From positions 248,001-312,000 of the forward strand of contig CP145424.1 in the NCBI GenBank assembly GCA_036867785.1: a DNA stretch of 64,000 nucleotides, written 5' to 3'. Below are positions 2,802 through 58,931 of the stretch, in pieces (position 1 is the first letter of the stretch; each line of letters starts with the position of its first letter). The notes under the pieces were generated by a model. That model made no database searches, was not told the DNA's origin, and saw only the letters and a list, made by a program, of their open reading frames with translations. The stretch comes from Plasmodiophora brassicae. Its lineage: Eukaryota. A program made the position numbers and the translations under genes.

Positions 2802-3375
2802 TCAGGCGGACTGGATCAGCGAGTACGCCAGGCGCGCGGCCGTGATGACACAGTACAGCTCGCCGAAATGGAACGGGCCGCCCCAGGTACGCGACGTCGT
2901 GGCACGCAGGTACCCGATCGCGAACAGAAGGCGGAACGCGAAGATCCAGAGCCCCTGTAGACGCATCGTTACTTGGACGTCCAGCGGCGTCCGTCCGACG
3001 GTCGCCTTACCGCGATGGCCGTGTACACTGGGTTGTACAGGCCAGACAGCAGGAACACGGGAACGAACATGGCCATGAACTCGACTGGACGACGCACGTT
3101 GTGGTCAACGGGGGCGCGATGCGGCGGCGACGGCGGACACGAGACGTACGGTTGTTCTGGTGGATCCGCTGCGCGCGCATGTAACCGTCGACCTGGTCGG
3201 GCGATAGTTTCAGGTCCTTGATCTCGCTGTCGCGCGGGTACAGCGTCGGCGCCTTGATGTGCGTGCGCATGCGGGCGCGGACGACGATGACCACGAATAT
3301 GACCTGCTGCTGCAGGTACAGGAGCAGGGCGGCGGCCACAACCCAGCCGTACTCCCCATCGACGTTCAACTTCAT
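2802..3375 (-). CDS. MAPEG family microsomal glutathione S-transferase, multi-exon
   Basis: YGWVV hydrophobic helix, RAQRIHQNN|VEF, FRLLFAIGY, GPFHFGEL are MAPEG hallmarks. Confidence 0.88.
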
Positions 3376-3624
3376 GGTCACGGCCGATCGATCCCCCTCC
3401 CGTCCCCGGCACCCGAACGCCTCCACAAAAATGCGTCGGTCAGCGCCGTCGAGAAGCGCGCGACTCACGAGGAGGAACAGTCGGGGGCGCGTGAGTGGCG
3501 CACAAAAATACAACAGTGGCGTTGTATTGGAATGGTGCGGCACGTTTTGTTTTGCGGTGTGTCGAACGTTCAGTCAGGGGCGGGCCTTGGCGATGGGCGC
3601 TGGATGGGGACGGGTGAGCGTGTG

Positions 3625-6077
3625 TCAGAAGTGCACGTCCGCCGGTAGACGAGCGCCAATGAGCGTACGCCTGCTGCGTCGGCAGGCGATGACGACGCCG
3701 ATTGCGATGGCGGCGAGGACGGCGACGCCGGCGGCGATGATGGCGGCGATGGTGATGGTCGGCCGTTTCGGCGGTTCCTGTAACAAGCGGCCGATCAGGT
3801 ATCGTCTGCTGCTGGATTGCGGGTGTTTGTGCCTACCGTGACAGTCTGTGGTGCAGTCGTGCGGGATGAACGGGCGCTCGGTTGTGCCGCTGGCCGGCTT
3901 GGCAGGCCCGAGAGCGCCAGGGCGCCAGCCGTGGAGGCAGCGGCCACACCGCCGACAACCATGGCCTTCTGCATGACAGTGGAACGCTGCCACGCCCTTT
4001 TCCCGTTGGCAAGGAAGTCGGGAACCTTGACCTGCTTCTTGATCGGTGCCGCCGGTTTCTTGAAACCCGGCAGGCTCGACCTCCATGGCATCGATCGCCC
4101 AGTCCAGGAATGCGTCTGCGTCAGCGTCTTCAGGTGGGGCGCCACAAGGTACGCCACGATGCCCGCTTTCATGGCGTTCGACTGCTTGGAAATCGTGTTC
4201 TGATTGGCCCGGACGCTTTCTTTGATGCGCTCGGCGTTGGTCTGGATGATGCGCAGTTCGTTTGTCATCTCTGAGGTCGCGTTCTTGATCGCGCCGACCA
4301 TATGGCCCGCCGTTTTCGTGATCTCCTGCTTGCTGGCGCGGACATCGTCGGTGATGCGTCCCGCCATCTTGTTGATGCTGGTCAGCTGCCCAGATATCGT
4401 TCGATTCACGCTCTGGAACGCATTGCCGAGTTCGTTGCTCTTCGTCTCGATCGTTTCTCGGTTGGCAACTTCGATGCGTCCGGCTTCTTTCTTGATGCTG
4501 CTCAGTTCATTTGTTATCTGTGAGGTCGCGTCCTTGATCGCATCGTCCAACCGAGACGCCGTCTTCGCGATCTCCTTCTTGTTGTCGACGACATTGCCGT
4601 CGATACGTCCCGTCACCTTCGTGATACTGCTCAGCCGCCCACATATTGTTCGATTCACACTCTGGATCGCGTTGTGCAATAGTTTGCTCTTGGTTTCGAT
4701 CGCCCGTTGGTTGGCTTCGACTCCGTTTTTGACGTACTCGGTTTCGATCTTGATGCTGTTCACTGCACGTGTCATCTCTGAGGTCGCGTTCTTGATCGAG
4801 CCGTCCAACTGCTTGCGCGTTTCCGTGAACGCCTGATTGCTGCCGGCGACATTGTCGGCGATCGTTTTCGTCATCTCCTTGATGTCGCTCAGTCGCCCAA
4901 GTACTGTTCGATTCACGTCCTGGATCGCAATCTCGAGTTTGTTCCCGATCGTGCCTTGGCTGGCCGTGATCCTTTCCTCGATGCGTTTGGTTTCGGTCTG
5001 GATGCGGCTCAGCTCACGTTTCATCTCTGAGGTCGCATCCTTGATCGAACCGTCCAACTCGTTCGCCCTTTCCATGATTTCCTGCTTGCTGCCGGTGACC
5101 TTGTCGTCGATCCTTTCCGTCATCTCCTTGATGTCGCTCAGTCGCCCAAGTACTGTTCGATTCACGCCCTGGATCGCAATCTCGAGTTTCTTCCCGATCG
5201 TGTCTTGGCTGGCCGTGATGCTTTCCTTGATGAGTCCGGTTTCGGTCTGGATGCGGCTCAGTTCACGTTTCATCTCTGAGGCCGCGTTCGTGATCGAACC
5301 GTCCAACTCGTTCGCCCTTTCCATGATTTCCTTCTTGCTGCCGATGACCTTGTCGTCGATACTTTTCGTCATCGTCTTGATGGCTGTCAGATTCCCATAT
5401 ATCGGTTTATGCAGGGCCGCTATCTGGTGGTAGAGGTTTTCGCTCGCGGTAATGATCATCTGTTGACTGTTCCTGACGCCGTCATTGATGTCCTGGATTG
5501 TGGTATTGATCCTGATGACGTCAGCTCTTGTCGTTCTGACCGCATTCATTGTGACGCGCTGCAACTCTGAACTCCACCGACGTTGGGCGTCTTTGAACCT
5601 CTGGGTTACTGGATCGAGATCTACCGCCACGCCTTCCTCTGCTGCGCCGCCATCCCTCTTTTCCCACAGTCGTCTTCGTTGTTGTACAGTCAGAGCGAGG
5701 TCCTATGACATGAACCGGCGTACGTACCTGTACTGGTCTAACATCTTGAATGGCCTATGCCATACTGGTTTCGCCACTGTGCCATTCAGCTTGCCCTCCT
5801 CTCGTTGTACAAGCACATCCGCCTGGTCGCCAAGTGCCCTCAAGAGTTCCTCGAATGTTTTCGCGTCGCCATCAGGTGGGTGTGAGGCCAACACTGCTGC
5901 AGCCTTATGCACGAGTGTCAAGGCTGCCCTGTCACAGCTGTCAACATCGGCAACGCGCAGGAGATCGGCCGCGTAATCCTGGCATGCTGCGGCCATGCGG
6001 ATGTACGCTTTCTGGTCGACTTCACTCATGGCCACAACGCACGCCCCTGCTAGGGCAAACACTGTCCATGCCAACAT
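3625..6077 (-). CDS. Signal peptide + long coiled-coil repeat + C-terminal TM surface protein (paralog 1), 3 exons
   Basis: MLAWTVFALAGACVVA signal; 611-aa heptad-rich exon with 83-aa repeats; phase-0 intron about 3779-3836 joins a TM exon ITIAAIIAAGVAVLAAIAIGVVIACRRSRR. Confidence 0.8.
4210..5410 (-). repeat. About five coding tandem repeats of about 249 bp (83 aa)
   Basis: Near-identical blocks at 4872 and 5121 (offset 249); recurring VNRT(V/I)xGxL motif. Confidence 0.9.
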
Positions 6078-7760: not shown

Positions 7761-8569
7761 GCCTCGATCGGACGTTGGCGGGCCCATTGCGTAAAATGGT
7801 GGCGGGCGCGGCGACGACGGCGCCGTGCCGCAAGTTGGCCTGCGAGATCCAGGCCTGCCTCGCCCAGCACGGGGTACACGTACGGCCGACCATCGCCCCG
7901 TCCCGATTGACTCACCGCGCCCGGACAGTACCGCGAGGATCGCTGTCGGGACGTCATCCGCCTCTGGAAGGCCTGCATGGCGCGCGCCGACCAACACCAC
8001 CACCAGCAGCACCAGCAGCAGCAGCAGCAGCAGTCGCCGTCATCACCATCACCACCACGTACACAATCGTAATACTGGTGCCCATATGCCGAATCGTCGT
8101 GAGTCATGGCCCCGGGTCCGGATGTTCGACATGTGTCGATGCTCGCCGCCGGCAACAGCACGCCTGGCAAACGCGCGTCGTCGTTGTGCGAACACCATGG
8201 CGACGATCGCGCCAGCAGCAGCAGCAACAGCAGCAGCACCAGGCGTGGAGGCAGCGGCCACACCGCCGACAACCATGGCCTTCTGCATGACGGGTGAACA
8301 CTTCGCCTCGATCGTCCCGAGGGCGGCGACCATGGTCGGGCGCGAAGCGCACCGCTGGTTTGATGGATTGTGCCCAGAGCAACCGGACGCGATCCGGGCG
8401 GCAGTGATCTGTTCATGCACGTACGTGCATCGGCGAGCTGAACTACACGAAACCGCCTAGTATCCAGTACGATCCATCTCATTGGGTCCCCTCGTTGTAT
8501 GCGTGTATTGACCCCCACAGGCGGTGCCGCGTGCGACTCGATGGCCATGTTCTCGGGTTGGGAGGACAA

Positions 8570-26647: not shown

Positions 26648-28696
26648 ATGACATTGTGGACGAAAACACTTGCTGTCGTCCTGGTGGCATGCCAGCTGAC
26701 GTTAGTGACACCCCAGACATCGCAGAATCTCGATGGAGGTGCTGAATGCTCGCTAGCTCCGACAGCAGACGCCAGCTGGCCATGGACCGAGTCTGACGTA
26801 TCTCCACCAGACGTCAACTCGGACCTATTGCACTGTCAGTGAAGGTGCACATGTTCACTGTTTCCTCCTACCTGACCACATGTGGCCGCCCATATAGACC
26901 TCGGTGATCGTGCTTTACTACACGCCTATTCAGCCACCGCTGACGACGTCATCGACGGAAGCGCTCAGTACAAGGCGTCGTTAGCACAGGTATCAGATTG
27001 GTGGCCACTTCTCGATGATGTGGAGTTTCCTGCCGGCAATGACCACGTCTGGCGCCCAGAATCAACTTTGCACAATCCAATTCAAGCAGACCCGCGACCT
27101 GAAACTCACCTCGTGGATGAGTCGCACCCTGCTACAAACCAGCTGTCGTGGCTCTCCCCTACCCTTGCCTCAAGCGACCTTAGCTATGGCATTCGGCCGC
27201 CATGGTCAACTGTCGATGGCGCCTTCACTAGCAACGGAAACATGTTATCGCCACCAATCAGTATGCCAATGCTGACAAACTCCCATGCTGATGAGGAGAT
27301 TCTCACTCGGTTCAACTCCAACGAGTACCTTCCCACTTACATTGATCTTTCGGTAGACCCCTGGCATGACGAACATGGCTTCTGGTCGACATCCCCCGCT
27401 GGCAATGTTGTCTACAGCTTCGGGAACGACGTGCTAGGGGTATCATCCGTCCTTTCTGATATGGATCTGCCCTCTTTTATTAACCTTGGAGGGCAGTTCC
27501 CCTTGCCATCCGCCCATGCAGATGAGCAGTTTCTCTCTCATCTTAACCCCAACGATTGTCCTCCCACTGACGTTCATCTTCCGGTAGATCCCTGGTATGG
27601 CGAACATGGCCTCTGGTCAACACCTCCCGCTGGCAATGTCGTCTCCAGCATCGGGAATGATGTGCCAGGGGTATCATCCGTCCTTTCTGATGTGGACCTG
27701 CTCTCTTTCATCAACTCTGACGGGCATTTCCCCAATGCCTTTCACTCCCCAACCAGCTCCATTCAAATTGCGTTACAGTCGCAAATCGCTACCCAGATAC
27801 CACCTGACACCTTTTTGAGCACATGGCCGGCTCACGCCATCGGGGACATTCCCATTGATACCCACTCCATAGACACCTCTCGTATCGTGTCTCTTTCCCA
27901 CGCCGCGGCACGTATCTCGGACGATGCCGACTGCTGTCCCCTGTCCTCTCTAGCTTTACAGAAACCGCAGTTCCCCGACAATGGACATTGGATGGAAACA
28001 GGGCCCTCCTATGTGCTTTCTGCAGCTGAGTGCATTGCCTCGCAATCGATGCAGCGCTCGCAGAATCAAGTCGCCGCCGACCAATACGCCTACAATATGT
28101 TCATTCCAGCAGCACTGATTCCGACTCAGATTCGTGAGGGCGACTACGGCACCTTCAGCAGGATCATAAGCGAACCCCCTTCCCTGGAGTCGCTTGCTGC
28201 ATCCAGCCACGACCGCTGCACTGCTGTCCCGTTCCCACCTGAACCAGTGCGGGCTCAAGGTACCACTGAAGAATCTGTCAACATGAGCGGTTTACAGTTG
28301 CAGCAGGGGCTGCCGAAACCTCATGGGCGTCGACCCCGACGTCCCAGTAAGAAATGTGAGCATGGGCGTCATCAACATAACTGCAAGATCTGCAGTCCCC
28401 ACAGGTTCTGTGAAGCGCATGGACGACGGAAATGGGATTGCACGATATGCGGCGGTCCCGGCACCTGTGTGCATGGGAGACTGACCTACAGTTGCGGAGT
28501 TTGTGGAGGGAAGGGCATTTGTCCACACGACCGACGGAGGGACCGTTGCCGGGAGTGTCGAGGAGGCAGTTTCTGCAAGCACGACAAGTATAAATACGAG
28601 TGCAGGGCCTGTGGTGGCAAAGGCCTTTGCGTCCACCAACGGCGGAAAGACCGATGCGGACAGTGTCGTCGGGCGGCCGAGCTCGCAATGGCCTGA
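26648..28696 (+). CDS. Secreted zinc-finger repeat protein A1 (candidate TF-like effector), 2 exons
   Basis: Signal MTLWTKTLAVVLVACQLTLV; intron 26835-26897 (GTCAGT..CTGAC..TAG) keeps frame; KPHGRRPRRPSKK; six Cx(1-2)Hx6CxxC repeats. Confidence 0.85.
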
Positions 28697-28979
28697 GCGT
28701 GTTGCATCTTGTCCCAATATCTGCGCAAATTGCGATTAAAGAGCAAATCGTGTGATGGATGGGTTCGTATAAGTCTAGTTATAACCGCTGGTGGGACTGG
28801 CAATGGTAGTCCTCGTCGACCCGCTGTTGAAGTTTCTGGGTTTAGCACGTGAAATCGCGTCCCGCGTTTGACGTGCACCGGCAGCGCAGCGGACGACGCC
28901 TCGTTCCGGCCCTGACTGGATGGGGTTCAATCAGGCATGGCGTTTCCCGCTCCGGGTGAGCCTGGAGCGCGTGTTGACG

Positions 28980-29328
28980 CGTGCAGCGGTGCAACCGCGC
29001 GCGTCGGCGCCGCAAGGACGACGACGGCGGCGGCGTCGTTGGATGCCAGGCCCTCGCCACTTGGTCGACGTGACGTTCGTCGTACATAAGGCTCGCGACC
29101 ACCACGACGTTGTCGGCACCGGCGCCACCGAAAGGCGTCCCAACGCGTGCCCAGACGCCCACCGCGCGGATGGCGCCGCTGCTTGTCGCGGAGGCCGCCA
29201 GGCGCAAAGCGCAGATGGCGTCGAAGACAATGGACGCCGGGAACGACCGGTGCCAGTGCCCAGAACGGGCAGGGAGCACCCGAAGCCCGTTCAAGGCGCA
29301 GTGCATCAACTGTTTCTGCAGCCATTAA
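28980..29328 (+). pseudogene. 3' fragment of the gene at 63442-63966
   Basis: LSAPAPPKGVP..MAPLLVAEAARRKAQMASK..SPFKAQCINCF; lacks the 5' part. Confidence 0.75.
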
Positions 29329-29703
29329 ACCGTTCGACCCTGGTCGTGCCCTTGACGTTGTTCTGATGGTGCTCTCCGTTGGCTCGATCGCGCGAACGGC
29401 GATCCGCAGGGAACCCTCAGCGACCCCGGGCACACACGTCACTCGGTGTGAGCATCGCCATGTACTTGTTGAAGGCGCAGGCGCCGATCGGGACCATCCC
29501 GCAGGGCATGCCTTTACCGGCGACGATCATGTCCGGGTGCAGGTCGAATTGCTCTACCCCCGAGCACACCGCATGGCGTCCGGTAGCCTCAGCCAGCCTT
29601 GCTCTATGGCACTCGCCCTAATATGCCACGGAGACAGTCCGACGGACTCAGAATTGCGCCGGATCATATTGTATTTTGCAGATCTGGAATCAGCGCGTGT
29701 GGA

Positions 29704-31514
29704 ATGACATCGTGGGCAACACTTGCAGTCGTCCTGGTCGCATGCCAGCTGACGTTAGTGGCATCGGTGATATCGCAGCATCTCGGTGCAGGTACCGGTG
29801 CGCTAGCTCCGGCATCAGACGTCAGCTGGACCCAGTCTGACGTGTCTCCCCCAGACGTCAACTCGGACCTGTTTCACCGTCAGTGAAGTTGCACATGTTC
29901 ATTGTTTGCCTACTACCTGACCACATGTGACCGTCCATATAGACCTCGGTGGTCGTACCTTACTACACGCCGATTCAGCCACCGATGACGAGTTCGTCGG
30001 CGGCGGAAGCGCTCAGTACCAGGCGGCATTAGCAGGGGTATCCGATTGTTGGCCACTCCGCGATAATGTGGGGATTCCTGTCGGCGACATCTACGCCTGG
30101 CATCCAGAATCAATCATCCACAACCAAATTCAAGCCGGCCCGCGACCTGAAGCTGACCAAATCGTGTCGGAGTCGCTCTCTTGTGCATAGCCTGCCACGG
30201 CACTGTCCAGACCTTGTCTCAGGCGACCTTGTAATCAGTTATGGCGTTCCGCGGCCATCGTCAGCCGTCGATGGCGAAACGAGCAACGGAAACGTACCAT
30301 CGTCATCGATCCGTGCGCCTTTCTTGCCATTCGCCCACGCAGATGAGCAATTTCCCTCTCCATTTAACTCCAACGATTGTCCTCCCAATGACGTTCATCT
30401 TCCGGTAGATCCCTGGTATGGCGAACATGGCCTCTGGTCAACATCTCCCGCTGGCAATGACGACGTCTCCAGCATCGGAAATGAGGTGCGAGGGGTATCA
30501 TCCGTCCTTTCTGATATGAATCTGCTCTCTTTTATCAACTCTGAAGGGCATTTCCCCAATGCTTTTCACTCCCCTATCAGCTCCATTCAAGTTGATTTGC
30601 AGCCGCAAATCGCTACCCAAGAACCACCTGGCACCTCTCTGAGCACATGGCCGGCTCACGCCATCGGGGACATTCCCATTGATGCCCACTCCATAGACAC
30701 CTCTCGTATCGCGTCTGACGTTTCCCACGCCGCGGCACGTCCAGACGACGCCGACTGCTGTCCCCAGTCCTCTATAGGTTTACAGAGACCGCAGTTCCCC
30801 GACAATGGACACTGGATGGAAACGGCGCCCACCAATGTACTTTCCGCAGCTGAGTGCATTGCCTCGCAATCGATGCAGTACTGCTGGCAGAATCAAGTCG
30901 CCGCCGACCCATACGCCTGGAACCTGTTCACTCCAGCACCACTGAATCCGGCTCAGATTCGTGAAGGCGACTACGGCACCTTCAGCAGGATCATAAGCGA
31001 ACCCCCTTCTCTGCAGTCGCTCGCTGCATCTAGCCACGACCGCTGCAGTACTGCTGTCCCGGTCCTACCTGAAGCAGTGCGGCCTCAGTGTACCACAGAC
31101 GAATCTGTCAACATGGGCGGTTTACAGTTGCAGCAGAGGCTGCCGAAACCACCCCGACGTCCCCGTAAGTCATGTGAGCATTGTCATCACAAACATATGT
31201 GCAAGATCTGCAGTCCGCACAATTTCTGTGAACCGCATGGACGACGGAAATGGGATTGCACGACATGCGGCGGTGCCGGCACCTGTGTGCATGGGAGACG
31301 GACATACCTTTGCGGAGATTGTGGAGGGAAGGGCATTTGTCCACACGACCGACAGAGGCAGCAGTGCCGGGAGTGCCGAGGAAGCAGTATCTGCAACCAT
31401 GACAGGTATAAATACCATTGCAAGGCCTGTGGTGGTAAGGGCCTTTGCTTCCACCAGCGGCAGAAAGGCCAATGCGGAGAGTGTCGTCGGGCGGCCGAAC
31501 TCGATATGGCCTGA
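29704..31514 (+). pseudogene. Secreted zinc-finger repeat protein B1, frameshifted (TAG at 30188-30190)
   Basis: gcatagcctgcc versus gcatacctgcc in B2, a 1-bp insertion; the rest is intact including six repeats. Confidence 0.8.
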
Positions 31515-42519: not shown

Positions 42520-42866
42520 CCCGGATAGCCGCACTGCCGCAGTTTCCGCCGCCCCTGGCACTGACGACGGCTTTCCTCCATCGCCACGGGAGGGGGACGG
42601 GCGGACGGCGAACTGCGCACTGCAATCACCGCATCGCCTACGACTGCCGCGTATCGCACTCTGTGAACTGCATTCGACGCACTTGGAGCTACACATCACG
42701 ATTCGGCACACACAGTTGAGCTGCACATCAACGCAGTGCGAGGCTACCCGGTCATTAATGTATGTGTCGAGCTGCACACCATCCCAAGTGGGCCAGCAGG
42801 AGGGCATATCACCGGATATAGGTCGTGGACGATCAGGTGGTACGATCGGTTGAAGCCCCAACGAGG

Positions 42867-44336
42867 ATGTATGCGACAAGTGTTGCGTCGTACGTGGTGT
42901 ATCCGGTCCTGACGGCGGTGTTCGTCGTGTACTACAGCGTCGTGCTGGTGCTGTTCTGGAGGCGATGGCGCCTGAGCCCGATCCGGCACATGATGCCGAA
43001 GCACATGTTCCTGGCCAGCGTGTTCGCAGCGTGCTTCTCGACGCTGATCTGCTTCGTCCACATCGTCAACGATACCATCAGCTACTTTGCGTTCATAATC
43101 ATATGCCAGATCCCGTTCTGTCTCACGTGCGATATCTACGTTGTCATTGGCGCGTCGCTGTACCTGGCATTCAATAAGACCCAGGACCAGCTGAAGCTGA
43201 ACGCCCTCGCGCAACAACGAGGTGACGTCGACAGGCAGATGGAGATCGCCAGGTGGATCCGGGTTTCGAACACACTGCTGAAGCCGCGCACTGGCGTCAT
43301 CTTTATGGCAATCAGCGTGTCCGCCCAGGTCCTTGTGCAGACGGTCTACGGGTTGTATCACTGGGCCGACGTATCCAACACGTTGGCGGACGCCGACAAC
43401 GCGAACCCATACGTGTCAACATTCACGAACGTCGCGGTTTACAAAAGCCTTGTCAACACGCTGATCTTCGTCATTCTCGCGTTTCGCCTGCGAATCGTCG
43501 TTGACGCACATGGCATGAAACAGAACCTGAAGCGCATCGGTAAGTGGTCGCTGATCGGCTTCGCGGTCTACCTGGCGCTGTACCCGTTCACGAAGTATTT
43601 CGTGTTCAACCCGTCGAATCCCATCACGGCCGTGATCGCCTGCATCGTGTTCACGTTCTCGGCCACGATCCCGGTCTGGCAGACGTATCAGCCGGATCAC
43701 ACTGCTGTCGACGACGCCACCCACATCAAGCTGAACATGTTCGAGAAGCTGCTGAATACCAAGGCCGGATATGACGCCTTCTACGACCAGCTCACGAGGG
43801 AGTTCGCCGTTGAGAACCTCCTGTTCTGGACCGAGACGGAAACCTTCCGAAAGTCGTTTCAGTCGGGGCGGGGTATAATTCGACAAGGGTTCTTCCCGGA
43901 TCATCAGGCGGGATCCGTTTCGCTTCCGGCGGACACTGGTCGGGTAGACCTGCCTAACGGGAAGGATGCTGATTCTGCCGCGCAGATGGCCAGGTCGATC
44001 TACGCCAAGTACATTGGCAATGACGCGCCTCTGGAAGTGAATCTGTCAAGCGACCTGTTCCGGTACTATCGGGCCTTCTTCGAGAGCGGCGACGATATAA
44101 CAACGAAGGACGGTTTCGGCCCGCTTCTGTTCGCCAGGGCATCCGCCTGCATTCTGGCGCTGATGGAGTCGAACTCGCTCGCGCATTTCAAGGTTCGCCA
44201 CGCGGCCGTCTGGCAAGGGTTCCTGGACTCTCTCCAGGAGGCGACCGTACTGGACCGGTTCACAATCGGGGTAGATGACAGCATCACGCCCAACCGCCCA
44301 GATGCGGGCACCTCTCACTCACCATCAATCGCGTAA
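42867..44336 (+). CDS. 7TM-RGS protein (copy 1)
   Basis: About seven hydrophobic helices then RGS box: GYDAFYDQLTREFAVENLLFW..IYAKYIGNDAPLEVNLS..LMESNSLAHF. Confidence 0.9.
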   Translation: MYATSVASYVVYPVLTAVFVVYYSVVLVLFWRRWRLSPIRHMMPKHMFLASVFAACFSTLICFVHIVNDTISYFAFIIICQIPFCLTCDIYVVIGASLYLAFNKTQDQLKLNALAQQRGDVDRQMEIARWIRVSNTLLKPRTGVIFMAISVSAQVLVQTVYGLYHWADVSNTLADADNANPYVSTFTNVAVYKSLVNTLIFVILAFRLRIVVDAHGMKQNLKRIGKWSLIGFAVYLALYPFTKYFVFNPSNPITAVIACIVFTFSATIPVWQTYQPDHTAVDDATHIKLNMFEKLLNTKAGYDAFYDQLTREFAVENLLFWTETETFRKSFQSGRGIIRQGFFPDHQAGSVSLPADTGRVDLPNGKDADSAAQMARSIYAKYIGNDAPLEVNLSSDLFRYYRAFFESGDDITTKDGFGPLLFARASACILALMESNSLAHFKVRHAAVWQGFLDSLQEATVLDRFTIGVDDSITPNRPDAGTSHSPSIA

Positions 44337-44429
44337 TAAACGCACCAAAGCATCGCTGCCGGGATACGGGCGCGCGTGACGACGATCCCCATGTGGTACC
44401 TTTAATACTCAGCTGAGCCCGCCAGCTCG

Positions 44430-45875
44430 ATGTATGCGAAGGATGCGGCCGGGTTCGTGGTCTACCCTGTGCTGTCGTCGCTGTTCGCTGTGTACTACAG
44501 CGTCGTGCTGGTGCTGTTCTGGAGGCGGCGGCGGCTGAGCCCGATCCGACACATGATGCCGCGGCACATGTTCCTGGCCAGCGTGTTCGCAGCGGCGTTC
44601 TCGTTCCTGATCCTGTTCACGCACATCGTCAACGATTCAATCAGCTACTTCGCGTTCATCCTGATAACACAGACGCCGTTCTGCATCAGCTGCGACATCT
44701 ACGTTGTGATCAGCGCGTCGCTGTACCTGGCGTTCAACAGGACCCAAGACCAGCTGAAGCTCGCGCAGCCAGGCGCCGACGGCAGCAGCAGGCAGCGAAG
44801 TATCGCCAGGTGGATCCACGTCTCAAACGTTCTTCTCAAGCCTCGTATCGGCGCCGTCTTCATGCTGGTCAGCGTGTCGGTACAACTCCTCGTCCAAATC
44901 ATCTACGGGTGGCACCACTGGGACGACGTATCCGTCAGTATGGCGTACGCTGACATATCGAACCCATTCGTGGCGACGTTCACGAACGTGGCTATCTACA
45001 AAAGCCTCGTCAACACTGTGCTCTTCGTCATCCTGGCATTCCGCCTGCGAATCGTGGTGGACGCGCATGGCATGAAACAGAACCTGAAGCGTATCGGCAA
45101 GTGGGTTCTGTTTGGTTTCACGATCTACTTGGCGATGTACCCGTTCGGTGACTACTTCGCGTTCAACCCGACGAGCCCGATCATCGCAGCTCTGGCCTTC
45201 ATCGTGTTCACATTCTCGGCAACGATCCCGGTCTGGCAGACGACCCAGCCTGAACACATTGCCATCGAGGACATCACCCAGGCCAAGGCCAACCTGTTCG
45301 AGAAGCTGTTGAACACGAAGCCTGGGTATGAGGCCTTCCGAGAACAACTGACCAGGGAGTTCGCCATCGAGAACCTCCTGTTCTGGACCGAGACGGAAGC
45401 GTTCCGAAAGTCGTTCCTGGCTGGGCGCCCTCATGTGATTCGCCAGGGGTTCTTCCCCGACGCGGGTTCCGCTCTCGGCGCAGCCGATCAGGGCAGCGAC
45501 AGGGACGTGCGCCCCTTCGCAGACATGGCAACGTCGATCTACTCCAAGTTCATTGCCCAGGAGGCGCCGTTGCAGGTCAACCTGTCCAGTGACCTGTTCC
45601 GATACTATCATGCGTTCTTCGAGGGCGGTGAAGACATCGCGGGCAAGGACGGGTTCGGGCCGCTCCTGTTCGCCAGGGCCTCCGCCTGTATCCTGGCGCT
45701 GATGGAGTCGAACTCGCTGGCGTACTTCAAGGTCCACCGTCCGGACATCTGGCAAGGATTCCTGGACTCGCTCCAGGAGGAGTCCGTACTGGATCGGTTT
45801 ACAATCGGGGTAGATGATAACACCATGCCGTTCCGCACAGGTGCTAGCAATTCTCACTCGCCATCAACCGCGTAA
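44430..45875 (+). CDS. 7TM-RGS protein (copy 2, tandem paralog)
   Basis: Same architecture; EFAIENLLFW, IYSKFIAQEAPLQVNLS. Confidence 0.9.
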   Translation: MYAKDAAGFVVYPVLSSLFAVYYSVVLVLFWRRRRLSPIRHMMPRHMFLASVFAAAFSFLILFTHIVNDSISYFAFILITQTPFCISCDIYVVISASLYLAFNRTQDQLKLAQPGADGSSRQRSIARWIHVSNVLLKPRIGAVFMLVSVSVQLLVQIIYGWHHWDDVSVSMAYADISNPFVATFTNVAIYKSLVNTVLFVILAFRLRIVVDAHGMKQNLKRIGKWVLFGFTIYLAMYPFGDYFAFNPTSPIIAALAFIVFTFSATIPVWQTTQPEHIAIEDITQAKANLFEKLLNTKPGYEAFREQLTREFAIENLLFWTETEAFRKSFLAGRPHVIRQGFFPDAGSALGAADQGSDRDVRPFADMATSIYSKFIAQEAPLQVNLSSDLFRYYHAFFEGGEDIAGKDGFGPLLFARASACILALMESNSLAYFKVHRPDIWQGFLDSLQEESVLDRFTIGVDDNTMPFRTGASNSHSPSTA

Positions 45876-56867: not shown

Positions 56868-58931
56868 TCAGGGCATAGCGAGTTCGGCCGCCCGACGACA
56901 CTCTCCGCATCGGCTTTTCTTCCGTTGGTGGGCGCAAAGGCCCTTGCCACCACAGGCCTTGCACATGTACTTATACTTGTCGTGCTTGCAAATGCTGCTT
57001 CCTCGACACTCCCGGCACTGCTGCCTCCGTCGGTCGTGTTGACAAATGCCCTTCCCTCCACAGTCTCCGCAACTGTAGGTCTGTCGCCGATGCACACAGG
57101 TGCTGGAACCGCCGCACATCGTGCAGTTCCGTTTCCGTCGTCCATGCGGTTCACAGAAATTGTGCGGACTGCAAACCCGGCAGTTGTCTTGACGTAGCCC
57201 ATGCTCACATTTCTCACGGGGACGTCGGGGTCGACGCCCATGAGGTTTCGGCAGCCCCCGCTGCAACTGCAAACCGCTCATGCTGACAGATTCTTCAGTG
57301 GTACCTTGAGCCCGCACTGGTTCAGGTGGGAACGGGACAGCAGTGCAGCGGTTGTGGCTGGATGCAGCAAGCGACTCCAGGGAAGGGGATTCGCTTATGA
57401 TCCCGCTGAAGGTGCCGTAGTCGCCCTCACGAATCTGAGTCGGAATCAGTGCTGCTGGAATGAACATATTGTAGGCGTACTGGTCGGCGGCGAATTGTTT
57501 CTGCAAGCACTGCATCGATTGCGAGGCAATGCACTCAGCTGCAGAAAGCACATAGGAGGGCTCCGTTTCCATCCAATGTCCATTGTCGGGGAACTGCGGT
57601 CTCTGTAAACCTAGAGAGGACTGGGGACAGCAGTCGGCGTCGCCTGGACGTGTCGCGGCGTGGGAAAAGTCAGACGCGATACGAGAGGTGTCTATGGAGT
57701 GGGTACCAATGGGAGTGTCCCCGGTGGCGTGAGCCGGCCATGTGCTCAAAAAGGTGTCAGGTGGTACTTGCGCAGCGATTTGCGACTGTAACTCAATTTG
57801 AATGGGGCTGATTGGAGAGTGAAAGGCATTGGGGAAATGCCCGTCAGAGTTGATGAAAGAGAGCAGGTCCAGATCAGAAAGGACGGATGATACCCCTGGT
57901 ACCTCGTTCCCGATGCTGGGGACGACATTGCCAGCGGGAGGTGTTGACCAGAGGCCGTGTTCGCCATACCAGGGGACTACCGAAAGATGAACGTCAGTGG
58001 GAGGACACTCGTTGGAGTTAAAAGAAGAGGGCAATTGCTCATCTGCAAGGGCGGATGGCAAGGGGAAACGCCCTTCAGAGTTAATAAAAGAGGGCAGATC
58101 CATATTAGAACGGACGGATGATACCCCTGGCACATCGTTCCCGAAGCTGTAGACAACATTGCCAGCGGGTGATGTTGACCAGAGGCCATGTAATTCGCCA
58201 TACCAGGGGTCTACCGAAAGAAGAATGTCAGTGGGAAGGTACTCGTTAAGGTTAAACCGAGAGGGAATCTCCTCATCAGCATGGACGTTTGGCATTGTTG
58301 GCACACTGATTGGTGGCGATAACATGTTTCCGTTGCTAATGAAGGCGCCATCGACAGTTGACAGTGGCTTTCGAATGCCATAGCTAAGGCCGCTTGAGGC
58401 AAGGATAAGAGAGTGCCGCGGCAGCTGGTGTGTAGCAGAGTGCGACTCGGCCACGAGGCGAGTTTCAGGTCGCGCTGCTTGAATTGGATTGTGCAAAGTT
58501 GATTCTGGGCCCCAGACGTGGTCATTGCCGGCAGGAAACTCCACATCATCGAGAAGTGGCCCCCATTCTGATACCTCTGCTGCTAATGGTGCCAGGTACT
58601 GAGCGCTTCCGTCCATGACGTCGTCATCGGTGGTTGAGTAGGCGTGTAGTAAAGCACGATCCCCGAGGTCTATATGGACAGCCACATGTGGTCAGATTGG
58701 AGGCAAATTAAACAATGAACATGTGCACCTTCACTGACGGTGCAATAGGTCCGGGTTGATGTCTGGGGGAGGTACGCCAGACTGGGTCCAGATGGAATCA
58801 ACTGCTGTCGGAGCTAGCGAGCATTCAGCACCACCATCGAGATGGGGGACTGCCTGCGATGTCTGGGGTGTCACTAACGTCAGCTGGCATGCAACCAGGA
58901 CAACAGCAAGTGTTTTCGTCCACAATGTCAT
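56868..58931 (-). CDS. Secreted zinc-finger repeat protein A2, 2 exons
   Basis: Same signal peptide, intron and six Cys/His repeats as A1; open frame. Confidence 0.85.

Follow-up and report, generated by a model that had tools for sequence, protein, structure and literature searches.

Periodic variation in a tandem Cys/His module array of four Plasmodiophora brassicae paralogues is consistent with a selected contact patch

Among the closest described counterparts of the proteins reported here are the C2H2 zinc-finger arrays of the KRAB-ZNF proteins and PRDM9, in which tandem small modules of metal-binding type are joined by short conserved linkers, and in which the few periodic positions that vary between paralogues are DNA-contacting residues under positive selection. 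The same arrangement, with paralogues differing at a few periodic positions, was found in four genes (A1, A2, B1 and B2) of a 64,000-nucleotide stretch of the Plasmodiophora brassicae genome (contig CP145424.1, positions 248,001 to 312,000; hereafter the window, the numbering of which is used throughout), all of which end C-terminally in an array of six Cys/His modules. A C2H2 finger (C-x2-4-C-x12-H-x3-5-H) spans approximately 23 residues, whereas the window module (C-x-H-x6-C-x2-C) spans 13, and the modelled window array, unlike C2H2 fingers, has no recognition helix; membership of zf-C2H2 was rejected on the grounds of this different spacing and the lack of a Pfam match at E ≤ 10. A C2H2-type signature, with contact residues diversifying between paralogues, would appear here in a different and very small module.

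CCHC zinc knuckles (retroviral nucleocapsid proteins, CNBP), which bind single-stranded nucleic acids, resemble the window modules in being Cys3His mini-modules of 13-14 residues that often form basic tandem arrays, yet their ligand order is C-x2-C-x4-H-x4-C, and zf-CCHC membership was rejected on spacing and on the absence of both a Pfam and a structural match. The sequence C-x-x-C-G-G-x-G in window units 2, 3 and 5 recalls the CxxCxGxG motif of DnaJ, whose cysteine-rich domain arranges four such motifs around two zinc ions without a histidine ligand; with the motif confined to some units, an invariant histidine in every unit and no Pfam match, assignment to this domain was likewise rejected. 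TALE repeats, which are near-identical helical units of 34 residues without metal, share with the window arrays the idea of a periodically hypervariable pair or triplet in a repeated scaffold. The window repeats are not TALE-like, however, since they are not near-identical: base identity between different repeats averages 0.51 (240 comparisons), and each repeat has an orthologue in every paralogue, at a mean identity of 0.87 (36 comparisons). The suggestion of a programmable repeat, made in a first-pass annotation of this DNA, was not borne out, given that different repeats share on average only 51% of their bases. No word of at least 11 bases was common to different repeats at non-homologous offsets in the four genes, so the variation is not due to one repeat having been copied onto another.

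EsV-1-7 motifs have the spacing C-x4-C-x16-C-x2-H, which does not fit the window modules, and the corresponding model (PF19114) had no match at E ≤ 10 to the four arrays or to two of their relatives (P0002 and P0008), so that membership of this family was rejected as well; in the library searched, the model matched two of 90 relatives, elsewhere in their sequence. One report describes EsV-1-7, a tandem motif rich in cysteine that occurs in giant viruses and stramenopiles, and proposes it as a new zinc finger (10.1101/2024.02.19.579948), a distribution paralleled by that of the window module family, which was found in protists and on giant-virus-like contigs. Judged by sequence criteria, the window array appears to combine an evolutionary signature like that of C2H2 proteins with the size and ligand set of CCHC knuckles, whilst failing the tests for C2H2, CCHC, DnaJ and EsV-1-7.

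Each array consists of six C-x(1,2)-H-x6-C-x2-C units, each followed by five residues, with unit 2 taking the form C-x-x-H and unit 6 running into a nine-residue tail. A degenerate DNA pattern for C-x-H-x6-C-x2-C matched the window 21 times, with 20 of these matches located in the four arrays and one in a low-complexity run at 8215; shuffled controls gave a mean of 0.28 matches, and none of 100 shuffles reached 21. The array is net basic (20-25 lysines and arginines versus 9-11 aspartates and glutamates per 113 residues) and contains 18-19 cysteines. Across the four paralogues, no amino acid change was observed in any of the 24 Cys/His ligand columns, compared with 20 of the 36 columns within H-x6-C, 6 of 25 in the linkers and 2 of 9 in the tail. 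The first-pass annotation, which had described the Cys/His scaffold and linkers as largely fixed and had quoted the hexapeptides of repeats 1, 3, 4, 5 and 6, was exact on the ligands and in all 20 of the quoted peptides, and fair on the linkers. The inner positions of C-x-H (4 of 7 columns variable) and C-x-x-C (6 of 12) are about as variable as H-x6-C overall, and 80 of 279 columns vary in the part of the protein upstream of the array.

Within H-x6-C the variation is periodic and non-uniformly spread, as had been proposed: positions His+1 to His+6 (counted from the histidine ligand) vary in 2, 2, 5, 1, 4 and 6 of the six repeats, respectively (heterogeneity among the six positions, p = 0.015, shuffling within repeats), such that His+3, His+5 and His+6 account for 15 variable columns of 18, against 5 of 18 for His+1, His+2 and His+4. 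Two of the less variable positions tend to be basic, with lysine or arginine occupying 21 of 24 cells at His+2 and 18 of 24 at His+4, and unit 1 is the most deviant.

The same three positions stand out in a much wider family. Searches with phmmer retrieved at least 3,580 cluster representatives at E ≤ 0.001 (best 3.6e-57), a number that falls to 1,375 when the threshold is set at E ≤ 1e-10 and to 91 at E ≤ 1e-30, whilst word-indexed searches returned 8 and 15 matches at 38-54% identity. A family profile was derived from 1,455 canonical units of 190 relatives, which carry a median of 8 and a maximum of 16 such units each. Of the 14 non-ligand positions, the three of highest entropy were His+6 (3.79 bits), His+5 (3.19 bits) and His+3 (3.16 bits), and variability per position among the paralogues tracked the entropy of the family (Spearman 0.84, p 0.0002). 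Lysine or arginine was found in 89% of units at His+2, 94% at His+4 and 82% at the first x of C-x-x-C, with glycine as the second linker residue in 94% and isoleucine, phenylalanine, leucine or valine as the last in 93%. The window arrays belong to this family by significant similarity, by basic residues at His+2, His+4 and the first x of C-x-x-C, and by a linker that is rich in glycine and has a hydrophobic last residue. In the relatives inspected, arrays start at C-x-H and finish at C-x-x-C, as would be expected if every 13-residue module held a single site of four ligands.

The tests for selection were based on four sequences (A1, A2, B1 and B2) and on the 113 codons of the array, of which 18 encode His+3, His+5 or His+6; this class was defined independently, from the entropy of the wider family (1,455 units) and not from the paralogue data. 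Strong purifying selection acts on the four-ligand scaffold, the 24 codons of which carried no non-synonymous difference in any of the six pairs at a pooled proportion of synonymous differences (pS) of 0.208. The pooled proportion of non-synonymous differences (pN) was thus 0 at the ligands, and stood at 0.089 against a pS of 0.261 at His+1/+2/+4 and at 0.306 against 0.237 at His+3/+5/+6. A Goldman-Yang-type codon likelihood of our own, with common branch lengths and one ratio of non-synonymous to synonymous rates (omega) per position class, gave omega values of 0 for the ligands, 2.42 for His+3/+5/+6, 0.54 for His+1/+2/+4 and 0.66 elsewhere on the tree (A1,A2),(B1,B2). On this tree, the best of the three, an omega of 1 at His+3/+5/+6 was rejected (twice the log-likelihood difference, 2dlnL = 8.9, p = 0.003). 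The other two topologies gave omega values of 2.36-2.67 for this class, and four codon-frequency models gave 2.42-2.74 (p 0.0007-0.003). The same code applied to 279 aligned upstream codons as a control returned an omega of 1.07-1.11, not different from 1.

Three disjoint pairings that need no tree yielded omega values of 2.41, 3.69 and 2.14 at His+3/+5/+6 (p 0.010, 0.0001 and 0.014), and single pairs ranged from 1.84 to 4.36, with four of the six at p < 0.05. In a parametric bootstrap for the (A1,A2),(B1,B2) pairing, one of 693 null replicates attained the observed statistic, the 99% quantile of omega under the null being 2.21. A conservative count was also made in which each codon contributed at most one event and the clock was taken from the other 95 codons; two of the three pairings gave 21 events where 9.3 were expected (printed p 0.0000) and 20 where 13.2 were expected (p = 0.014). 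Every method has His+3/+5/+6 evolving no slower than silent sites, and most have them evolving faster, a result that we regard as suggestive.

A second line of argument for selection had been drawn from the contrast between B1 and B2, which were said to be nearly identical upstream yet to differ in the array. The description is accurate (17 base differences in 802 positions of 5' coding sequence, 30 in 342 of the array), but it is not evidence of selection, because the synonymous divergence (dS, Nei-Gojobori) also jumps, from 0.020 upstream to 0.180 in the array, and because the non-coding 3' flank is equally diverged (48 of 553; array versus flank 8.8% and 8.7%, Fisher p = 1.0). The corresponding upstream and array dS values are 0.066 and 0.230 for A1-A2, and 0.137-0.154 and 0.150-0.275 for the A-B pairs. 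Private differences of B1 and B2 are absent from codon columns 366-533 and number 12 and 7, respectively, from column 534 (unit 2) onwards. Upstream, the A|B site pattern prevails; in the array it is replaced by private and conflicting patterns, the latter appearing from codon column 558 (A1B1|A2B2 at five sites, A1B2|A2B1 at two). What the B1/B2 contrast marks is where a tract recently homogenised by gene conversion or duplication stops on its 3' side; the array is situated past that point, and the jump in divergence is historical and not a local island. A conversion breakpoint can thus mimic local hypervariability. Between A1 and A2 the array is the most diverged part, at 13.7%, with 5.7% of positions differing in the sequence 5' of it and 8.2% in that 3' of it (array versus flank, p = 0.011). 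Taken as a whole, the array has diverged at least as fast as the non-coding flank, even with 24 of its 113 codons frozen.

No entry for the module was found in the family resources searched. The four arrays had no Pfam match at E ≤ 10, with only sub-threshold touches of DUF7895, and no Pfam match for the module was found in eight relatives, nor any NCBIfam match for the array; PHROGs searches with five relatives returned only two weak rows of unknown function. Against the Protein Data Bank (PDB), the best sequence match (E 0.0064, to an insertion in GEN1) was judged to be due to chance, and the best profile match had an E of 0.14. A search of the ESM Atlas linked the array, with a score of 0.89, to unnamed clusters in which Chlorophyta was the commonest phylum, which serves as a lead only. 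No description of the module was found in the literature searched, though supplementary gene lists, which lay outside the search, might name these genes. In the resources searched, this is a large Cys/His repeat family without a family model, a solved structure or a paper. The sole closer relative in the collections searched was P0059, a protein of 250 residues that is 68% identical to the C-terminal part of A1 and shares its pre-array region, and in which the sequence following unit 5 resembles the array in another frame, like a frame-shifted tail; it may be a fifth, damaged paralogue from another part of this genome or from that of a related organism.

The AlphaFold2 model of the array had a mean predicted local distance difference test (pLDDT) score of 85.9, and approximately 91 across the array itself, with a bridge in every unit between the residue preceding the first cysteine and His+3. 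In the model of the relative P0005, His+4 to His+6 form a short helical turn ahead of C-x-x-C. With the array model, Foldseek returned nothing from the PDB at E ≤ 0.001, and in VIA-align none of 48,161 chains reached Z ≥ 2; since an elongated model of six modules may be unsuited to a global fold search, these negatives do not demonstrate a new fold.

The strongest, if indirect, indication that nucleic acids are read by the array comes from its relatives. In 25 of the 190 (including P0002, P0004-P0006 and P0041) the array is followed by a conserved C-terminal domain, the model of which (pLDDT 91.6) best matched the homing endonuclease I-Bth0305I (Z 8.2, root-mean-square deviation 3.0, 93 of 97 residues aligned), followed by Vsr endonuclease (Z 7.2 and 6.9). 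Further matches were to BpuSI, AbaSI, McrC, Can2, Bax1 and Hjc, and nearly all of those listed were nucleases of the restriction-endonuclease fold; a PDB search by sequence with this domain of P0002 found no match. An array placed before a cutting domain corresponds to the layout of a DNA reader joined to a nuclease, as in homing endonucleases and the zinc-finger-bearing R2 endonucleases, and going by the models these relatives may be natural 'zinc-array nucleases' of giant-virus-like genomes. The window proteins differ from this layout in their signal-peptide-like start and unrelated N-terminal part, and in lacking the nuclease-like C-terminal domain. Amongst 90 relatives scanned with Pfam, most carried no other domain, and single members carried DNA ligase, T5orf172/MUG113, OTU, Chromo, SWIM or Rho_N domains, the last of which also occurs in P0028 and P0030. 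A search with a single relative located the family at two loci on viral contigs, and one of these members lies among genes for the RNA-polymerase subunits RPB9 and Rpb6, TFIIS, a RING protein, a DDE transposase and an N6 methylase, a gene set that is giant-virus-like. On one IMG/VR contig, a family member directly adjoins a gene for a DDE-type transposase (1827-2852 on the minus strand and 2929-3885 on the plus strand).

The explanation that we favour, and hold with moderate confidence, is that His+3, His+5 and His+6 form the selected contact patch of a zinc-module array. The proteins comprise four parts, namely a signal-peptide-like N-terminus, a long neutral-like part without known relatives, a short basic stretch and the six 13-residue modules. 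Each module probably holds one zinc ion, and the array would present an extended basic surface on which the conserved lysines and arginines could make generic contacts with a polyanion, most probably nucleic acid, whilst His+3, His+5 and His+6 would constitute a patch that sets target preference. Following duplication, the paralogues would have diverged at these positions faster than at silent sites, through diversifying selection between copies, and the proteins may be secreted and could possibly act on host nucleic acids.

A number of observations weigh against this explanation. Neither a solved structure nor a family model nor an experiment was found that links the module with zinc or with another ligand, and the scores that relate the C-terminal domain of the relatives to nucleases are middling (best Foldseek E 5.2e-3, with none ≤ 0.001, and one VIA-align row at Z ≥ 8). 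The ratio of non-synonymous to synonymous divergence (dN/dS, Nei-Gojobori, pairs) is below 1 over the whole array (0.41-0.91; upstream part 0.67-1.24) and is only 1.29 at His+3/+5/+6 when the local silent rate is used, with approximately 10 silent sites per pair. The one-event count for the most natural independent pairing gave 16 of 36 versus 11.0 expected (p = 0.05), and many of the codons concerned differ at two or three bases. Silent divergence is higher in the array (0.15-0.275) than in the sequence preceding it (0.02-0.15), suggesting that the array has had another history or mutates at another rate. As site patterns conflict within the array, any single tree is wrong and the p-values obtained on trees are optimistic; the omega of about 1.07-1.11 for the rest of the protein means that fast evolution is not special to the array; and since His+3/+5/+6 are the least constrained positions family-wide, part of the pattern is lack of constraint. 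With four mosaic sequences, the selection signal is suggestive and not proof. Diversifying selection, as proposed in the first-pass annotation, was accordingly upheld in part: omega at the independently defined class is 2.1-3.7 (p 0.0001-0.014), but neither the whole-array dN/dS nor the Nei-Gojobori value at these positions provides comparable support.

Several of these points would also be expected if the three positions were exposed and tolerant, and under relaxed constraint only, with the excess arising from multi-base mutations, conversion tracts imported from unseen paralogues and the small sample. We consider this account less probable than a selected patch, though it is the most serious of the alternatives. 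It agrees with the family-wide variability of His+3/+5/+6, with the Nei-Gojobori ratio of 1.29 and the p of 0.05 in the one-event test for the (A1,A2),(B1,B2) pairing, with the mosaic history inside the array and with the omega of about 1.1 in the 279 upstream codons; P0059, which is paralogue-like but more distant, at 68% identity, and lies outside the window, could be a conversion donor. Set against this, all maximum-likelihood variants gave an omega of 2.1-3.7 at p ≤ 0.014, with one bootstrap replicate in 693. The neutral-like upstream part gave 1.07-1.11, and not 2 or more, under the same code, so the method does not inflate the ratio by itself. Imported tracts would carry silent changes as well, and hence should not raise the ratio above 1, and divergence in the array is at least that of the non-coding flank despite the 24 frozen codons of 113. 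If the positions were merely unconstrained, the result would still define a large undescribed Cys/His repeat family.

Selection might also be real without any involvement of nucleic acid, if the patch bound host proteins or were seen by host immune receptors, and the paralogues diverged so as to reach different targets or evade recognition. This we think rather unlikely. In its favour are the signal-peptide-like N-terminus with its spliced exon 1, the fact that the runs bearing the locus include some filed as plant metagenome, and the fast evolution of the whole protein (omega about 1 upstream), which is common in secreted proteins of host interaction. There is also a precedent in a secreted zinc-finger effector of a plant parasite that acts on a host kinase, the domain of which (MYND) is unrelated to the window module (PMC8358996). 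However, a polyanion is the better fit to an array that is net positive and has three conserved basic residues in each 18-residue unit, and the fusion partners seen in relatives include a nuclease-like fold, a DNA ligase, Chromo and Rho_N domains.

Nor do the isolates look as though an arms race were under way. Contigs of four runs (X7, X10, X15 and X16) were compared with the window, their depth, transcript ends and absence of cover being uninformative; among the 40 of 67 differences listed, none falls on a His+3/+5/+6 codon, a result that does not support the first-pass proposal. Two listed differences lie in the A1 array, one silent at the third position of a cysteine codon (28450) and one at 28605 that, by codon reading, turns the first x of the unit 5 C-x-x-C from arginine into lysine, the residue that the other three paralogues carry there. 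In the B1 array, the difference at 31222 is the B2 state at partial depth and may represent cross-laid B2, whilst that at 31389 is the A1 state; one X10 contig carries three differences across 31358-31511, one of them listed. Variation among the isolates looks low and shared with the paralogues, and the divergence looks to lie between copies and not between strains.

A further consideration is that a signal peptide, if real, would route the protein through an oxidising compartment, where its cysteines could form disulfides. The array could then be an extracellular disulfide-rich domain rather than a zinc module, with the variable positions as surface loops, an interpretation that we find improbable. 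The hydrophobic N-terminal segment and the 18-19 cysteines per 113 residues would suit such a domain, and the support for zinc is indirect, coming from invariant ligands and a confident compact model. Against it stand the one invariant histidine of every unit (100% of the family units by construction) and the ends of the arrays, which in the relatives inspected always begin with C-x-H and finish with C-x-x-C, giving four ligands per 13 residues. A hydrophobic N-terminal stretch was found, by the same crude measure, in only 6 of 181 relatives, and relatives lie beside genes for RNA-polymerase subunits and TFIIS on giant-virus-like contigs or are fused to intracellular enzyme domains.

Going beyond a contact patch, we might envisage an undescribed modular reader of nucleic acids, in which His+3, His+5 and His+6 of each unit specify part of the target and arrays of 6-16 units read long sites, which giant viruses use to aim homing-type nucleases, and to which the parasite has added a secretion signal whilst diversifying the reading residues among the paralogues toward different host sequences. 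This scenario is unlikely as a whole. If the three positions did read a target, the family would provide a new scaffold for modular recognition, with 18 residues to each unit; pairing arrays with cut sites in the nuclease-fused relatives would offer a direct route to decoding it, and the secreted paralogues would be candidates for proteins sent by a plant-associated parasite to host nucleic acids.

Gene models were built for the four copies (Table 1), all of which comprise a short exon 1 starting with ATG and a GT..AG intron of 63-69 nucleotides, those of A1, A2 and B2 being assigned by homology. The predicted proteins are approximately 590-660 residues in length, and the open frame of A1 covers 604 codons (26882-28696, plus strand), with the array at its 3' end. 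The basic stretch immediately before it might act as a nuclear-localisation signal, judging from its composition. With regard to a possible secreted effector, what was seen was a hydrophobic N-terminal segment (best 12-residue Kyte-Doolittle mean 2.51) and an exon 1 that is spliced in a run filed under another organism. In B2 the first in-frame ATG is at 62863, and the ATG homologous to that of B1 lies 75 nucleotides further in. The N-terminal part contains two or more direct repeats of 231 bases (77 residues) at approximately 81% identity, such as 27273-27502 and 27504-27733 in A1, with matching parts in A2, B1 and B2; it is without relatives in Pfam and gave no usable ESM Atlas match.

It could be asked whether the copies are decaying pseudogenes and the pattern noise, given the omega of about 1 upstream, the broken frame of B1 in the window and the frame-shift-like tail of P0059. 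This is very improbable, as three copies retain open frames of 593-605 codons at 6-15% divergence, no ligand residue has changed in six pairs despite the pooled pS of 0.208, and omega is 0.5-0.7 at His+1/+2/+4 and in the linkers. A spliced B1 transcript is moreover seen in X16. At the break (approximately 30186), the contigs of X7, X10 and X16 show a short length difference from the window and X15 is the same as the window, for which reason the break looks like an allele of some isolates. B1 was used in the analyses only downstream of this break.

Table 1. Features of the four array-bearing genes and their coordinates in the window
Feature	Coordinates	Strand	Basis or remark
A1 exon 1, hydrophobic signal-peptide-like N-terminus	26648..26834	+	Homology with B1; no sense-spliced contig seen for A1
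A1 intron, 63 nucleotides, GT..AG, inferred	26835..26897	+	Donor and acceptor contexts conserved with B1; spliced frame open
A1 main exon	26898..28696	+	Fast-evolving N-terminal/middle part, 77-residue internal repeats, basic stretch, array
A1 basic R/K-rich stretch, nuclear-localisation-like, immediately 5' of array	28325..28354	+	Read from translation
A1 array, six C-x(1,2)-H-x6-C-x2-C units, five-residue linkers	28355..28666	+	DNA pattern, AlphaFold2
A1 His+3/+5/+6 codon starts, units 1-3	28370, 28376, 28379; 28427, 28433, 28436; 28481, 28487, 28490	+	
A1 His+3/+5/+6 codon starts, units 4-6	28535, 28541, 28544; 28589, 28595, 28598; 28643, 28649, 28652	+	
3' non-coding flank common to the four copies, neutral yardstick	28697..29250	+	Aligned, 8.2-11.0% differences
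B1 exon 1, signal-peptide-like N-terminus	29704..29878	+	Joined to main exon in X16 contig
B1 intron, 64 nucleotides, GT..AG, spliced out	29879..29942	+	Joint 29878->29943, X16 contig, shorter side 122 letters
B1 main exon, frame broken near 30.19 kilobases (kb); array 31173-31484	29943..31514	+	
A2 main exon; array 57209-56898	56868..58669	-	
A2 intron, inferred, 69 nucleotides, 58738-58670; exon 1 58931-58739	58670..58931	-	
B2 main exon; array 61125-60814	60784..62549	-	
B2 intron, inferred, 64 nucleotides, 62613-62550, and exon 1	62550..62863	-	Homology

The genes form two clusters, at 26.6-31.5 kb and 56.9-62.9 kb, and another copy may lie past the end of the window. The duplicated unit covers approximately 3-4 kb per copy, including approximately 0.6 kb of common 3' flank. 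The copy order is A1 to B1 on the plus strand and B2 to A2 on the minus strand, and as this order differs between the strands, the two-gene block is not a simple inverted copy. The starts of B1 and B2 pair at 98% (29682-30003 with 62489-62810), and the sequence 5' of B2 still matches that 5' of B1, at 97%, as far as 63142.

Contigs of X15 and X16, runs guessed to be RNA, show gaps of 47-65 bases with CT..AC ends in the A1 and B1 regions (26825-26871, 27049-27109, 27288-27340, 27800-27861, 28721-28785 and 31066-31122). The shorter side of the alignment measured 120 letters at one gap and 26-29 letters at four, and the gap at 26825-26871 was deduced from two loose ends. These gaps would correspond to GT..AG introns of the opposite strand, and suggest spliced antisense transcripts inside or just after the coding regions of A1 and B1; no long minus-strand frame is evident in these regions.

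The remainder of the window looks eukaryotic, with a G+C content of 52-69%, short GT..AG introns and reading frames resembling PACS-1, RGS, MFS-transporter and GH26 proteins. Two tandem paralogous frames at 42822-44336 and 44406-45875 are 77-82% identical in DNA and each encodes an RGS domain. A minus-strand frame of 635 codons contains, at 4183-5436, a 249-base unit repeated five times in tandem (64-80% identity to the reference copy); this frame has weak, below-cut-off Pfam similarities only, several of them to helical or coiled-coil proteins.

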